Shown one piece after another: positions 1-4,160 of a DNA stretch of 64,000 nucleotides; positions within the stretch are counted from its first letter, which is position 1; the number at the start of each line of letters is the position of its first letter. The notes under the pieces were generated by a model that did no database searches, was not told the DNA's origin, and worked only from the letters and a program-made list of their open reading frames with translations. Both the position numbers and the translations under genes were made by a program. Source of the DNA: Psammoneis japonica (Eukaryota); NCBI GenBank assembly GCA_008632985.1, contig QPGO01000059.1:248001-312000 (forward strand), given 5' to 3'.

Positions 1-3000
1 TTTGGCTCCTTTTGTGTTGTGGTCCCACTGCAAAACAACCATTTGATGTGCTGTGAATCTTTCCAAGTTCCACTTCTGCATTGTGACTCCATGCAGCAGC
101 TCTGCCAACATTGTGACAAACCATTTGCCAACCAAATCATTTGGCACATTGCATTGTTGCCATGGGTGGGGCACTGGCCAGTGCCGGTGCTCTTGCCACA
201 TCTCTTGTCGTCCAACATTCCACCATCCAGTTTGGTGCTGTCACTGAGATGACATGTCTTGCCATGTGTCTTGCATGTGATCCATTCTGCATCTGAATTG
301 AAGTTGTTGGGTGTGTCATTGGTGTTGTCAGTTGATGGGGCAATGGCTCCATCCGAGCCCTGTCTGTCCTCCAACTGTGCACTGTCCCTTGTGGCAGTGT
401 CAACCTCCTCATTGGTTCCACCCTCATCAGCACCCGTCTCTTGATTGTTGGGTGCAATGTTTTCTTTGTTGGCTTTGGGTCTGGCCTTGTTTTTGTTTTG
501 TTTGTGGTGGCATCAGGGGTGTCGTTGATGAATTGACAAACTTTTGGCTGAAGCGGAGCACCTGTGGAGAAACACATCACAATGACAAAGAGCCAAAAGT
601 TGGATTTCCTGAAGATGAGTGTTTTTCAGCAATGATGGCAGATTGGTTCACAATTGCAGGGAACAAGAGGAAGTGAAAATGACTGATGCTTGGTCAAGAC
701 TTGATGGCAGCAAATGAATTCAATGGCAACAAACAGTGACTTGTGAGCTGATCTGCCACATTGCAATTGAACACCCTCCATCAAAGCTGCTTCCATGCTG
801 TCAACAAGGGCCCAGCTGGCCTTGATGGAAAGAGCCACAAAGGCACTTTGAGACCAAAATCAATGCTCCAGCAGGCCCATGAGATTTCACTGTTGTTCAT
901 TGTGCCTTGTTGGTTTGCTGGCTCTCTGCTCTCTGTGCATGCACTCTAGAGCAGTGATGAGTGGAGTTCCATGTTGCAAGTCTCAAGGAAACATCCATTG
1001 AGAACAGCCTTTCTGTCTTTGCTGCTGTGGAAGGCTTTCTTGTTGAGAGTCTCTGCTGCATCATTTTTTGGTGTTGCCACAGCATTTGGGCATTTTTTGC
1101 CCAACCAGCTTTGAACAAACTGTGCTCTCCATTTTGAGCCACTTCTGCATCTTGCAATTTTGCTTCTTGCAATGATTTTTGTCCTTCCTTGTTGAAAATG
1201 ACTCCTTGTGCATCAACAACAGACTGCACATTTTCTTGTGCACTGCTTCCCATGGCAGCAGCTTCTGTGGTGCAAGTCCTCCTTGCATTCTCAACTCTGC
1301 AACTGCTTCCACTGCTGTGCACCACTGTTGCAGCTGCGCCAGCAATTCACACATTTGGGCTCTTGACAAGCTTGAAACAATTGCGGAGATTTGGCCAAAT
1401 CATTTCCAAACAACAGCGCCTCAACATTCATTGCTTTTGCATTTGCACCTGGCTTCTCACATCATTGCTCATGCCACTCAGGTGCCTTGTTGGTGTTCTT
1501 AGGATCAGCCCACTGACCAAATTTTGCTGCACACATTGCACCACCTTTCACTGAACTTTGAATTGTTTCCTTCACTGTTGTCACCTCCACAATGCTCTTC
1601 TGGGTGCTGAAATGCCTTGTGTCTTTTCTTGTGATGGCTGCAGCACTTGGTGTCATCGGCGCCTGACAAGCAAACACTTCCTTTGTTTCATCTCCTGGAT
1701 CTGAGGTGCCATGCATGGCCCTCCACAACTGTGCCATGCCTTCTTGCATCTTCTTGAGCTCTGGTGATTTCCTTTGATCGTCTGTTCAACAATGAGTGCC
1801 AACAAGTTGAGTTCTTTTTATTTTTCACCAACACAGTCACAACCAGCTCATTCTTTTCAACTTTGAAGCTGGCGGCGAGTTGTGCTTGATCTTAAAACTG
1901 GTGCCCAGTTGCTCAAATGACTTGCTTGGTCAAACTGTCCTCCCGATGGAGATTTTTCCCAGCAGAGCAAATCTCAGCTTCACACACTGGCCCCATCAAT
2001 CCTTTGGTGGTGGGCAACATTGTCAGATTCACTGCCACAATTGCCTTTTGCTTCTTTGCTGCCTGTCATTTGGCTTCACTTGCACCAGTCAGTTCTGTTG
2101 CTGTGCTTTCTTTGCTGGGCATGTTTGCCTCCTTGGTGGTGCCCCTGCCCACAGCCAAAGCAAATCTGCACATGCTTGCACACGTGCCTTGAGGATGGAT
2201 TGTTGTTTGGCTGCAGCCATTTTTGTTTTGCAGCTCAAGATTTTGCAATTTTGATTTTTTCACATTGCACTGTGCTCTCATTCTGGTCCTCTTGTCCAAC
2301 CTCACTTTTGATCTCAGTCAGCCAGGTTTGTTCCCAATCTGTTGCCAACTTCAACCCCTTGTCATGACTGGCTCACAAGTCAAATCTTCCCCCATCGGAC
2401 TGTGAGCATCCTTTTAGAGGCAATTGCTTTGCCCCATGTTCAAGACATCATGGAACACCAATGGCAGACTCAGAGAAACACTGGCTGGCAAGCCAAAAGA
2501 AAACAACAGTGCCAATGGTGATGCACCTGCAGCAGATGAGAACATGTGAAAAAGAGAAGAAGAAAAAAAAGAAGAGGGCACAGAGGATCCCTGTGCAACT
2601 TCAGTGGAATTTGCAGGGCTGTGTTTTGATGGAGAAAGTGAGCAAATCAAAGGACATTTAGAAGCAGAGATTGGCACTGAAGTGCCACTGGTGGAAGACT
2701 TGCAATCCCAATGACAGCCCATGCTAAGAGAACTTCTGGATCAAGTGCTGGAGGGGAGCAAATTCAAACAAATCAAAAATAAAAACATGGCAATGTGACA
2801 ATCACAGCAGACAAGGAATGCACAATGTGTGCTTGCGGCAGTTTGAAGTTGGGGTTTGTGTCAAGTTCTCTGCAAAAGAGGTTGTCCCTGATGATGCTGT
2901 TGCCCTGACACAGGATGTTTTTGGCAGTGCTGACATGGGCCGGACTCAGGTGTGAGCAATGCGTTCTTTTGAGAAGCTGCACAAAAGGCTGCACCATCCA

Positions 3001-4160
3001 TTTGCAGTTTGCAGCAGACAGAGCACATTCAACACCATCCATTCAATGGCTTCTCAGAGGACAATGGCGCCATTAAAATGGATGACAATGACAAAGGAGA
3101 TTGTGCATGCCTCCATGTGCAACATCCAATGGTGACCAAAAGTTGTCCATCCTTCTGTTGGAGCTGGCCAACCAAGTTGCAGGTCTAGAGTTGTCACCCA
3201 ACAAAGCACTGGCCCCATCATTTCAATGGACTTTGCAGAATTTCACAGAGTCAATGTGCTCCATTAACTGCACGTGCATGGCCACATGTGGGCCAGGGAA
3301 AACAAACAGCATTGAAGTGTTCTTGAGACAACAACTTCCAGCAGAGAGGGCTCACTCAAGCTGCAGTGCAGAGTGAGTGGGGATTGTGAGTTTTTGCAAG
3401 CTGTCATTGTGAAGAATGAGCCTTCATCAGTTGACTGGTGTGTGTTGCAGCACGATTGCACCTTGGCAGCTCTGCATCAAATGTGACAGCTCTGGGGTGA
3501 AGGGGGACACAACCAGGACAGCAAACAGTGTTAATTTCATCAAGAGTTGACATTTTCAAAAGAAATGAGTGCAGCTGCCAAGCATTGGATCACCACCAGT
3601 GTGAGAAACAGGTTGTTGCCAGCAGAACTGCGGTGGGATTCCTGCAGTTGGGAGCTGTCCCAGGCTCACTTCAGGCATTTTGTGGCACCTCTGCAGTTGT
3701 GTCCTGCATTTTCTGATTCACAGGGACTTTGTGCAATCATCAGTTTGCAAAAAGTGTCACTGTGGTGCATTTTGTGTTCATCTTTTGCTGCACATCCAGA
3801 GTTTTCACAAAGTCAAGGTGTGTCTCACTGCACAGCATCATCATTCTTGATCACACCATCCATCCCTTTTGAGAGCAAGCACTTGGTTTCTGATGTGCCA
3901 CCTGTTGCAGCAGCAACATGCAAAGGACATTGACCACAAGCATGTCATGAGTCCACATTGCCTCCCAAGCCAATGAGAATCTCCAAAAGCCAGAGCATCT
4001 GTCACTCTGCATGAAGCGCCAACTCCTGCTTGCAGTGTGCAGGCTTCATCAACACAATCCCTCCCCGATTGATGAGTCTCTTTTTGTGGCAACCATGTCA
4101 GACTGGCCCTTGCATCTCTTGTCTGCTGTGGCAAACCCAGTGTCCCCAAGCTTGTTGATC
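1..4160. other. TpA-erased, CpG-depleted island 1 (decayed genes/repeat; continues past window start)
   Basis: About 12 TpA counted by eye in ~4.1 kb; TG/CA-rich; ORFs almost lack Tyr and are Cys/His-rich; normal composition resumes from ~4164. Confidence 0.9.
3860..3990 (-). pseudogene. Decayed ankyrin-repeat coding fragment
   Basis: Minus-strand translation LLEILIGLGGNVDS*HACGQCPLHVAAATGGTSETKCLLSKG matches the ankyrin G-x-T-P-L-H-x-A-A pattern, with an in-frame stop. Confidence 0.55.

Follow-up and report, generated by a model that had tools for sequence, protein, structure and literature searches.

The window analysed here is a stretch of 64,000 nt from Psammoneis japonica (assembly GCA_008632985.1, contig QPGO01000059.1, positions 248,001-312,000, forward strand). 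It contains five islands of diatom genome, 1.6-4.5 kb each, in which nearly all TpA and most CpG dinucleotides have turned into TG or CA. Island 1 (1..4160) runs past the start of the window and has a sharp right edge at ~4160-4165; it retains 12 TpAs (observed/expected, o/e, 0.042) and 26 CpGs (o/e 0.112), with a TG+CA o/e of 1.87. Island 2 (12570..17050), which has a TA-poor tail extending to ~17317, retains 20 TpAs (o/e 0.069) and 94 CpGs (o/e 0.353). A single TpA is left in island 3 (22300..23900, at its widest 22223-23978), along with 34 CpGs (o/e 0.35), and a single TpA also in island 5 (55960..57900, at its widest 55940-57979), along with 33 CpGs (o/e 0.275). Island 4 (28206..30100, or up to 30357), with a GC content of 52%, has 6 TpAs and 19 CpGs (o/e 0.15). 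TpA o/e thus ranges from 0.008 to 0.069 and TG+CA o/e from 1.72 to 1.99. For the pooled islands (14,194 bases) versus the flanks, o/e values are 0.04 versus 0.56 for TpA, 0.25 versus 1.01 for CpG, and 1.81 versus 1.18 for CA/TG. The four pyrimidine-purine steps summed make up essentially the same share of islands and flanks (~0.244 versus ~0.242; 0.234-0.271 by island), which indicates that the changes are transitions only.

Comparison of the five islands with each other by blastn and tblastx revealed no homology apart from internal repeats. Such repeats occur in island 3 (tandem, 22508-23059, seen in purine/pyrimidine space only) and island 4 (29006-29273 and 29480-30104). When ORFs of the flanks were searched against the islands by tblastn, the only matches were a tandem repeat and a short paralogue, both described below. 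A Pfam search of all five islands in six frames, with stops read as X, gave nothing over the cut-off; a weak ankyrin-repeat-like remnant lies at the right end of island 1 (3845..4010, minus strand; Ank_2, E 0.0037, 18.2 bits against a cut-off of 27.3). For the minus strand of 897-2000 in island 1, translated through its stops, no homologue was found among proteins of 202-644 aa. Six-frame profile searches identified no families in islands 1, 3, 4, and 5, none of the island frames matched a reverse transcriptase or integrase, and no viral genes were recognised in them.

The clearest coding remnant is in island 2 (12777..14397, minus strand). It is a broken member of a family of ~1000-aa ORFs with 81 homologues (best E 3.9e-47), and Tyr is absent from it. 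The family probably originated in a mobile element. Pfam placed none of 12 members at E<=0.01, and all of 14 members gave chance-level matches at E<=10; NCBIfam had no match for any of three members, and a PDB profile search also had none. In the ESM Atlas the family core led to DUF6729 (16% of the members of one cluster) and, below 0.9, to MULE/ISL3 transposases; a 181-aa ORF scored 0.85. HMMER did not confirm these language-model leads, and the apparent likeness to DUF6729 and MULE/ISL3-like transposases is taken as a lead only. A Tyr-free homologue of 1207 aa is present in another source collection. This protein and one other homologue matched nothing in metagenome contigs, and a search of viral contigs with one homologue found no viral relatives. 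For the island-2 element, terminal direct or inverted repeats sought in purine/pyrimidine space did not rise above shuffled controls.

A second part of island 2 has a recognisable source close by. BLAST in a purine/pyrimidine alphabet (score 102, versus 55 for the best null) together with nucleotide alignment identified 16103..16356 (plus strand) as a hypermutated copy of 11533..11780 (plus strand) in the flank, which comprises the 5' end and upstream region of a gene at 10333-11646 (minus strand). Every one of the 11 CpGs and five fully aligned TpAs of the flank copy is changed by a single transition in the island copy (C>T 6, G>A 5, T>C 3, A>G 2), and another TpA, the sixth, falls at a gap. 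The other 178 aligned positions hold 26 transitions and 15 transversions. Next to the reference copy is a tandem array with a period of ~177-183 bp (11740..12640, plus strand). Island 2 starts within the last copy of the array, at ~12570, and the array copies to the left of this point retain TA and CG. Both the unmutated paralogue copy and the intact array directly adjoin the island.

The few TpAs that survive are far from a random sample. The initial annotation had counted about 12 in island 1, ten of them in the context YTAR, and had proposed 5'-TAY/RTA-3' as the target. The count is exactly 12, with contexts and order as listed there: CTAG at 947, TTAG at 1500, TTAT at 1819, TTAA at 1893, TTAG at 2415 and 2659, CTAA at 2725, ATAA at 2780, TTAA at 3074, CTAG at 3186, and TTAA at 3265 and 3532. 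Ten of 12 in YTAR is a strong excess over the flank YTAR share of 0.162 (p=6e-7), over the share of 0.215 outside long ORFs (p=9e-6), and over the YCAR/YTGR share of 0.235 in the islands (p=2e-5), the last being the expectation if TG/CA had regenerated TAs. The further claim that the bias recurs in islands 2, 4, and 5 holds in part, with YTAR proportions of 11/20, 4/6, and 1/1; the remaining nine TpAs of island 2 are mixed (RTAR or YTAY) and none is RTAY. In island 3 the proportion is 0/1, the sole surviving TA being ATAC. Even with island 1 set aside, islands 2-5 have 16 YTAR among 29 survivors (p=2e-6). Over all five islands there are 26 YTAR, 13 mixed, and 2 RTAY (n=41), versus 298, 960, and 583 in the flanks (n=1841; chi-square, p=1e-14), and the YTAR excess persists against a non-ORF baseline (p=9e-9).

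Expressed as density in islands relative to flanks, 0.29 of YTAR remains, 0.045 of RTAR/YTAY, and 0.011 of RTAY. This is the order that had been predicted, and the loss is not equal across NTAN tetramers (likelihood ratio 57.8, 3 df, p=2e-12). Survival per strand varies with the base that follows the A: 0.697 for TAA, 0.359 for TAG, 0.101 for TAT, and 0.083 for TAC. The counts are consistent with a multiplicative model in which each strand contributes its own independent factor (deviance 8.1, 6 df, p=0.23); two independent half-sites therefore account for the data and a palindromic RTAY site is unnecessary. Since even YTAR is depleted ~3-fold, TAR is also attacked, but more weakly. The trinucleotide frequencies per kb (island versus flank) are 0.28 versus 11.98 for TAC, 0.28 versus 10.58 for TAT, 0.75 versus 8.18 for TAG, and 1.53 versus 8.33 for TAA. 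The context rule is drawn from 41 survivors in five islands of one 64-kb window, with the flanks as a proxy for ancestral composition.

The products of the changes agree with the survivors. Where TAY is present on one strand only (YTAY/RTAR), the gain was 33.2 per kb for the predicted products YTGY+RCAR and 6.1 for the alternatives YCAY+RTGR, a bias toward TGY/RCA that agrees with a TAY model. The largest trinucleotide gain in the islands is TGC/GCA (+17.4 per kb). The product asymmetry exceeds what TpA loss alone could yield, and the disfavoured gain of 6.1 per kb is under half of the mixed-class CpG loss of 24.0 per kb. This excess implies either that CpG decay is also strand- or context-biased or that there is a second flow (CAY>CGY>TGY). 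Additional apparent T>C/A>G shifts are seen at positions adjoining targets. The proposed target 5'-TAY/RTA-3' is thus supported by survivors, products, and proteins (below), which are different features of the same window.

We propose that the TpA process would act on each strand independently, at a rate set by the base 3' of the A (C~T > G > A). The effective target would be 5'-TAY-3' (RTA on the opposite strand), and YTAR, with TAR on both strands, would go last. Its chemistry would most likely be a deamination that turns adenine in DNA into hypoxanthine, carried out by a putative TadA/ADAT-like enzyme that is directed at silenced or foreign sequence. Sequence alone cannot separate attack on the A of TAY from attack on the T of RTA, and the same islands and the same rule would arise if the thymine of 5'-RTA-3' were oxidised or hypermodified by a TET/JBP-type enzyme, to 5-hydroxymethyl-, formyl-, or J-like uracil, with mispairing to G and hence T>C. 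RTA being the exact complement of TAY, all context and product counts fit this equally. In dinoflagellates hydroxymethyluracil is found preferentially at TpA, and base J occurs on both strands of TpA in telomeric repeats, sitings that lend attack on thymine some plausibility. We nevertheless regard it as unlikely, as the best context, TAC, is close to the natural UAC core of TadA (PMC11472039) and favours adenine.

CpG loss trails TpA loss, and the two can be partly separated. At 12570-13000 and 23500-23900, TpA has disappeared but CpG retains an o/e of ~0.6. CpG survival varies with the flanking bases (GCGC 1.0, CCGG 0.57, WCGW 0.12-0.16) but follows no simple one-sided rule; the most depleted CpG trinucleotide is TCG/CGA, at 3.02 per kb in islands versus 17.63 in flanks. 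The only structure in the spacing of surviving CpGs is clustering at short range (1-25 bp, z=4.7); a nucleosome-like period is not clearly seen. Strongest loss at A/T-flanked sites is the look of spontaneous methyl-cytosine decay, and the CpG loss would most simply be methyl-cytosine deamination in the same silenced domains. The spatial link of the TpA process with CpG decay suggests that the targeting signal is silenced chromatin.

Alternatively, a single dual-specificity deaminase could produce both A>G at TAY and C>T at CpG, without CpG methylation. TpA and CpG losses do share both the islands and their sharp borders, and both product sets are biased to TGY/RCA; moreover, ADAT2 enzymes acting on A and C in DNA are cited in a preprint on the alga B. 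natans (Mettrop et al., 10.64898/2026.01.13.699255). Speaking against one enzyme are the completeness of TpA loss where a CpG o/e of ~0.6 remains, the concentration of CpG loss at A/T-flanked sites, and the B. natans mutations themselves, 230 of 231 of which are given there as A>G or T>C (10.64898/2026.01.13.699255). We consider dual specificity rather improbable and retain two processes, a TpA process and CpG decay.

Sequencing data bear on how the islands reached their present state. Summed depth is 204-379 at 12674-15341 versus ~58 alongside, indicating that the genome contains multiple copies of this part of island 2. Copies within the same run differ by 522 transitions and 159 transversions. 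Among them are adjacent TG<->CA swaps (233/234, 13107/13108, and 14722/14723), as expected if one ancestral TA or CG changed independently in separate copies. Against the window, a single-copy contig from run X1 (14963-20000) has three differences, all in island 2, two of them with TA in the contig and TG in the window; the 2.9 kb of flank that it covers is identical. These differences hint at a raised local de novo mutation rate in island 2. A second X1 contig, spanning the border of island 1 (2730-8598), has no differences from the window. X1 probably derives from the same sample as the assembly and does not count as independent support. Run X2 covers the flanking genes very unevenly and is suspected to be transcript-derived; inside the islands it gives no cover except diverged pieces at 635-781, and carries no weight for or against expression.

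At least some of the raw material of the islands would be a mobile-element-like, multi-copy family, and some a duplicated piece of a neighbouring host gene. If instead transcripts of an element had been hyperedited by an ADAR-like enzyme, reverse transcribed, and re-inserted, the islands would have arrived already mutated, and sharp borders and the multi-copy state of part of island 2 would follow naturally. This is very unlikely given that island 2 starts within a host tandem repeat, that a copy of a host-gene 5' end has been mutated as well, and that reverse transcriptase and integrase are lacking in every frame of the islands. Furthermore, ApA is not depleted (o/e 1.26 in islands versus 1.16 in flanks), the 3' preference here is for C/T whereas ADAR prefers G, and TA/TG differences between assembly and run are still present in place. 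Mutation of resident DNA is the reading that we retain.

At the protein level the main effect is the removal of tyrosine. In an alignment of the island-2 remnant with 19 of the 81 homologues, the remnant has, at 12 consensus-Tyr columns, Cys in seven, His in two, F/R/L in three, and Tyr in none. The codons at replaced Tyr columns are TGY/CAY, and the commonest mismatch between remnant and homologues is Y-to-C. In six-frame translation Tyr falls to 0.06% in islands versus 2.26% in flanks, while Cys changes by a factor of 1.77, His by 1.41, and Arg by 0.53. The initial annotation had suggested that an enzyme-like context preference would turn Tyr codons into Cys or His, in keeping with ORFs that are Tyr-poor and Cys/His-rich. 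Nine of the 12 columns bear out the first part; the enrichment in Cys and His stems partly from CGY changing to TGY/CAY, in line with the halved Arg, and the ORFs are broken remnants. The two processes together would turn Tyr mostly into Cys, or into His, and Arg into Cys, His, Gln, or Trp, and would create many new TGA stops. For annotation, this means that Tyr-free, Cys/His/Gln-rich "orphan" ORFs of algal genomes may be what editing has left of mobile elements.

Selection against TA and CG, through nuclease avoidance or RNA stability, has a precedent in the dual CpG/UpA avoidance known in RNA viruses; it is highly improbable as a substitute for mutation pressure in these islands, where conserved Tyr is replaced, frames are broken by stops and shifts, the same site is TG in one copy and CA in another, and the five islands are unrelated in sequence. 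An artefact of base calling or assembly at modified bases, conceivable if the islands are heavily modified DNA and in that the library type of run X1 is not recorded, is hardly credible given that independently built X1 contigs have identical letters across both island-flank borders, that the changes behave as inherited substitutions differing among genomic copies, and that a Tyr-free homologue of 1207 aa exists in another source collection.

Overall, we think it probable that the islands are ordinary DNA brought near saturation by two processes, a TpA process in which adenine at TAY would be deaminated and a CpG process. TpA would become TpG/CpA, and CpG likewise, the two sharing a common end dinucleotide. 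The direction of change is read from composition, the host-gene paralogue, and protein outgroups rather than from a time series. More tentatively, the islands could record a chromosomal DNA-editing defence in diatoms, in which a TadA/ADAT-derived deaminase acting at silenced domains erases TAY on both strands and, together with CpG-methylation decay, leaves invading or duplicated DNA free of TA, CG, and Tyr codons. Were such a defence to exist, the presence of its signature in a chlorarachniophyte too would imply that it is ancient in eukaryotes or has spread among marine algae, and the trinucleotide footprint would make the system traceable in any genome.

Several known systems invite comparison. 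RIP in ascomycete fungi converts C>T mainly at CpA, so that TpA rises and CpA/TpG fall, as described in PMC2621366. Like the process in the islands, it is a local transition hypermutation that damages repeats or mobile elements and is recognisable from its dinucleotide signature. RIP was rejected as a candidate: the dinucleotide signature here is the reverse, and RIP mutates both duplicates, whereas here the flank copy (11533-11780) and the array (11740-12570) are untouched. The target of CpG hypermutation in basidiomycetes is TCG. That hypermutation is directed at transposons (PMC3318451) and is not known to have a TpA component. The islands resemble it in their CpG>TpG/CpA decay and in having TCG/CGA as the most depleted CpG trinucleotide. 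ADAR, which acts on double-stranded RNA, accepts a 5' A too, and prefers a 3' G, was likewise rejected, with ApA intact in the islands and TAG surviving 4 times better than TAC. Clusters of A>G with a 5' U preference are attributed to ADAR hyperediting in the Discussion of the B. natans preprint (10.64898/2026.01.13.699255).

Closer in context is TadA, reported to edit mRNA of E. coli and Klebsiella within a UACG core, where Tyr UAC becomes Cys (PMC11472039). TadA and ADAT2/3 have a U before the target A, and in the islands TAC is most depleted and Tyr>Cys is the main protein outcome. The TadA/ADAT-type context, with T on the 5' side and C favoured on the 3' side, is the one seen in the islands and may reflect a likeness of mechanism only; as described, the natural substrates of these enzymes are RNA loops, whereas the islands are chromosomal DNA. 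The strand-independent footprint TAC~TAT >> TAG > TAA reduces the candidate enzymes to those whose pocket accepts U-A-C/Y, as that of TadA/ADAT does.

The closest likeness is to B. natans. In the literature searched, we found no paper on TpA-directed hypermutation in diatoms, and targeted A:T>G:C hypermutation of chromosomes is otherwise represented by one 2026 preprint on this one rhizarian alga. As reported there, TpA>TpG/CpA hypermutation of integrated viral DNA arises de novo, 124 TpA-depleted clusters are present, and the targets are foreign DNA, namely integrated virus or transposon, with a locally raised de novo rate measured in mutation-accumulation lines (Mettrop et al., 10.64898/2026.01.13.699255). 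Lineage and degree differ. B. natans is a chlorarachniophyte, whereas RPL3 in the window is closest to diatoms (76-82% identity); the islands are near-saturated (TpA o/e 0.04), whereas an NCLDV region of B. natans is given a Rho of 0.45 and a TpA content of 3.3% (10.64898/2026.01.13.699255). The preprint describes integrated viral DNA as a target; no viral genes were recognised in the islands, of which island 2 carries the multi-copy, perhaps transposase-like ORF family as well as a mutated host-gene fragment. The islands also combine CpG co-depletion with a flanking rule (TAY >> TAR), whereas the words "CpG", "context", "flanking", and "trinucleotide" do not occur in the main text on B. natans. 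Common to both are TpA>TpG/CpA changes on both strands and clustered regions, poor in TpA and rich in CpA+TpG, with transposase-like or unannotated ORFs; the signature of clustered TpA loss with CpA+TpG gain is present in all five islands. In B. natans, A>G and T>C changes are confined to TpA, and in the paralogue all five aligned TpAs changed by T>C or A>G. An ADAT2-like adenine deaminase is proposed as the agent in the preprint, as it is here. The footprint defined in the islands is directly checkable against the 230 published de novo mutations of B. natans. The same end-state has been reached in a diatom, which means that the process is not confined to a single species.

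The window is eukaryotic, with intron-poor genes that encode ribosomal protein L3, sulfite oxidase, aldehyde dehydrogenase, a SET/TPR protein and a homocysteine methyltransferase, and the nearest named proteins to this L3 are from diatoms (76-82% identity). A 500-bp scan revealed near-total loss of TpA and CpG, with doubled TG+CA, in five stretches: islands 1 (1-4160), 2 (~12570-17050), 3 (22300-23900), 4 (28206-30100) and 5 (55960-57900). Observed/expected ratios for the pooled islands (14,194 bases) are 0.04 for TpA, 0.25 for CpG, 1.81 for CA/TG, 1.34 for GC and 0.78 for AT, versus 0.56, 1.01, 1.18, 1.02 and 0.96 in the flanks (the rest of the window). 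Island-versus-island comparison revealed no sequence kinship among the five. Island 1 ends abruptly on its right, within ~20 bp. On its left, island 2 begins part-way through the final copy of a tandem array; this copy is identical to one upstream copy over ~115 bases and then takes on the mutated style from near 12570, and the copies upstream of the border retain TA and CG.

The array (11740-12640) consists of ~5 copies with a period of 177-183 bp, which agree at 92-99% when reduced to purines and pyrimidines. It is located upstream of the 10333-11646 gene and is crossed by long ORFs on both strands. Internal tandem repeats occur in island 3 (22508-23059, detectable only in purine/pyrimidine reduction) and island 4 (29006-29273), so satellite-like DNA is also a target. 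A 403-aa ORF without a Pfam match (23603-24814, +) starts in the TA-free tail of island 3, in a region with CpG still ~0.6 of expectation; it is either a host gene whose 5' end was caught in the domain or a spurious ORF. Adjoining island 1 is a 593-aa ORF (4789-6570, -) with a borderline Pfam match to the delta-endotoxin N-terminal domain (21.4 bits versus a cut-off of 21.3).

The island signature is the product of mutation, specifically of transitions only, from TpA and CpG to TpG/CpA. Transitions leave the purine/pyrimidine pattern unaltered, and the four pyrimidine-purine steps together, calculated from dinucleotide counts, have a share of ~0.244 in islands and ~0.242 in flanks (0.234-0.271 island by island). 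A paralogue search in a two-letter purine/pyrimidine alphabet (best score 55 for the reversed-sequence null) identified 16103-16356 in island 2 as a copy of flank 11533-11780 (score 102), which covers the 5' end of the 10333-11646 gene together with sequence upstream of it. When the two copies are aligned as nucleotides, each of the 11 CpGs and each of the five fully aligned TpAs in the flank copy is altered in the island copy by one transition (C>T 6, G>A 5, T>C 3, A>G 2, flank to island); a sixth TpA lies at an alignment gap. The remaining 178 aligned positions hold 26 transitions and 15 transversions. The gene whose 5' end was the source of the mutated copy (10333-11646, -) has a paralogue at 25933-26793 (-), and both have a GRDP-like region and a C-terminal Rad60-SLD/ubiquitin-like domain.

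Sequencing reads also bear on the islands. One public DNA run (X1), probably from the same sample as the assembly, contains 91% of sampled window words, and contigs assembled separately from it agree with the window in the island letters and span both kinds of border. The X1 contig over 2730-8598 has no differences from the window; that over 14963-20000 has three differences and one gap, with all three differences in island 2 and two of them TA in the contig versus TG in the window. Summed depth is 4-6x the single-copy level at 1-667 and 12674-15341, and these parts therefore belong to multi-copy families. Across 198 matched run pieces there are 522 transition versus 159 transversion differences. 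Most of the 31 transition differences looked up are swaps among TG, CA, CG and TA. At three places there are adjacent TG<->CA pairs, a sign that a single ancestral TA or CG was hit independently. A second run (X2) contains a diverged relative of 635-781, whose loose end, read by eye against the window, has TA at three places versus TG/CA in the island.

The initial annotation had reported 12 TpAs in island 1, ten of them YTAR (TAR on both strands), and a full listing agrees in number and contexts. From these it proposed a 5'-TAY/RTA-3' target, attack on which would turn Tyr codons into Cys or His. We counted contexts in all five islands (island 2 from 12454) and in flanks minus 300-bp margins. 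The 41 island TpAs comprise 26 YTAR, 13 mixed (YTAY/RTAR, with TAY on one strand) and two RTAY (TAY on both), versus 298, 960 and 583 of 1841 in the flanks (chi-square 64.5, p=1e-14). Island/flank densities follow the predicted order, at 0.29 for YTAR, 0.045 for mixed and 0.011 for RTAY. The YTAR excess holds against flank sequence outside long ORFs (YTAR share 0.215; p=9e-9), against island TG/CA contexts (share 0.235, the expectation if TA were regenerated from TG/CA; p=6e-8), and in islands 2-5 without island 1 (16/29, p=2e-6). All ten tetramer classes are fitted by a Poisson model in which each strand contributes one survival factor, determined by the base 3' of its A (deviance 8.1, 6 df, p=0.23); the factors are 0.70 for TAA, 0.36 for TAG, 0.10 for TAT and 0.083 for TAC. 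Treating that base simply as purine or pyrimidine gives only a marginal fit (p=0.049), since TAA survives better than TAG. The data reject uniform NTAN depletion (likelihood ratio 57.8, 3 df, p=2e-12). Together these fits make the target a half-site on each of the two strands, not a palindromic RTAY site.

Ancestral TpAs with TAY on one strand only (YTAY/RTAR) are those for which the model predicts the product. For this class, islands have lost 19.6 TpA and 24.0 CpG per kb versus flanks; the predicted products, YTGY+RCAR, have gained 33.2 per kb and the alternatives, YCAY+RTGR, only 6.1. From flank to island, TAC falls from 11.98 to 0.28 per kb and TAT from 10.58 to 0.28, and the top trinucleotide gain is TGC/GCA (+17.4 per kb). 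The product asymmetry exceeds what TpA loss alone could yield. Either CpG decay may likewise be TGY-biased, or a slower CAY>CGY step may supply new CpGs to that decay. The slower step would also account for CpG survival, which is 1.0 (undepleted) for GCGC versus 0.12-0.16 for A/T-flanked CpGs. CpG loss lags: at 12570-13000 and 23500-23900 TpA is gone and CpG is still ~0.6 of expectation.

Protein remnants record the same changes. Searching with a broken frame in island 2 (12777-14027, -; stops treated as X) gave 81 homologues (E<=1e-3), 48 of them at E<=1e-10 (best 3.9e-47) and many ~1000 aa long. The family has no match in Pfam, NCBIfam or PDB; a language-model search provides only a lead to DUF6729 and MULE/ISL3-type transposases. 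In an alignment with 19 of the 81, picked as longer and better matches (the other 62 were left out), the remnant equals the consensus at 85 of 181 consensus columns. At the 12 consensus-Tyr columns it has seven Cys, two His, one each of Phe, Arg and Leu, and no Tyr; Y>C is its commonest mismatch, and its codons at replaced Tyr are TGY and CAY. Cys exceeds His, as the TAY rule predicts, because every Tyr codon presents TAY on its coding strand and the opposite strand qualifies only after a purine. Tyr content is 2-5% in most of the 45 homologues listed. Six-frame translation gives 0.06% Tyr in islands versus 2.26% in flanks, with island/flank ratios of 1.77 for Cys, 1.67 for Gln, 1.41 for His, 1.40 for Trp, 0.53 for Arg and 0.59 for Ile. 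Survivors, products and the remnant's consensus-Tyr columns thus support the proposed target and its Tyr to Cys/His outcome. One full-length, uninterrupted family member from another source collection (P0143, 1207 aa) has no Tyr and raised Cys (3.4%), with Cys or His at the family's consensus-Tyr positions.

Other features were observed outside the islands. After an intact homocysteine S-methyltransferase gene (7488-8477) comes another copy, divided between two overlapping frames (9235-9889); it has normal TA and CG content and looks like a recent tandem duplicate in decay. Intergenic patches at 36190-36360 and 53810-53930 are unusually TA-rich (TpA observed/expected 1.3) and untouched by hypermutation. 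Both are built from one CTAG/TAGAG-rich motif family, which includes stretches like CTCTAGAGAGTAG and CTACTCTCTAG, and may be a shared regulatory or mobile element.

The process acts on both strands, within sharp domain borders, and follows a 3'-neighbor rule of C ~ T, then G, then A. Its targets include a multi-copy element and a host-gene fragment; the undamaged tandem array next to island 2 and the second member of the paralogue pair have escaped, which argues against a homology-triggered process like RIP and favors a position- or chromatin-defined domain. The TpA step would be enzymatic deamination of adenine in DNA, and CpG loss may reflect methyl-cytosine decay within the same silenced domains. 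Alternatively, the attacked base may be the thymine of RTA, for which the counts are identical to those for adenine attack at TAY.

The phenomenon belongs to a kind very recently described in another algal lineage. In a 2026 preprint, mutation-accumulation lines of Bigelowiella natans are reported to have acquired 230 A>G/T>C mutations in two integrated viral regions, every one of them at TpA. The same work describes 124 clusters in that genome that are poor in TpA and rich in CpA+TpG, with an excess of transposase and reverse-transcriptase domains and of unannotated genes, and proposes an ADAT2-like deaminase (10.64898/2026.01.13.699255). The terms "CpG", "context", "flanking" and "trinucleotide" do not occur in the main text of that preprint (10.64898/2026.01.13.699255). 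Our literature search found no report of TpA-directed hypermutation in diatoms. For eukaryotic ADAT2/3, U33-A34 is the invariant context. The best-hit island context, TAC, is identical to the UAC core in bacterial TadA's natural substrate; mRNA editing by TadA recodes Tyr to Cys (PMC11472039). Fungal RIP, in contrast, mutates C>T at CpA and raises TpA, a signature opposite to that of the islands (PMC2621366). What is new here is the lineage, how close the loss comes to saturation, the quantified rule on flanking bases and the association with CpG loss.
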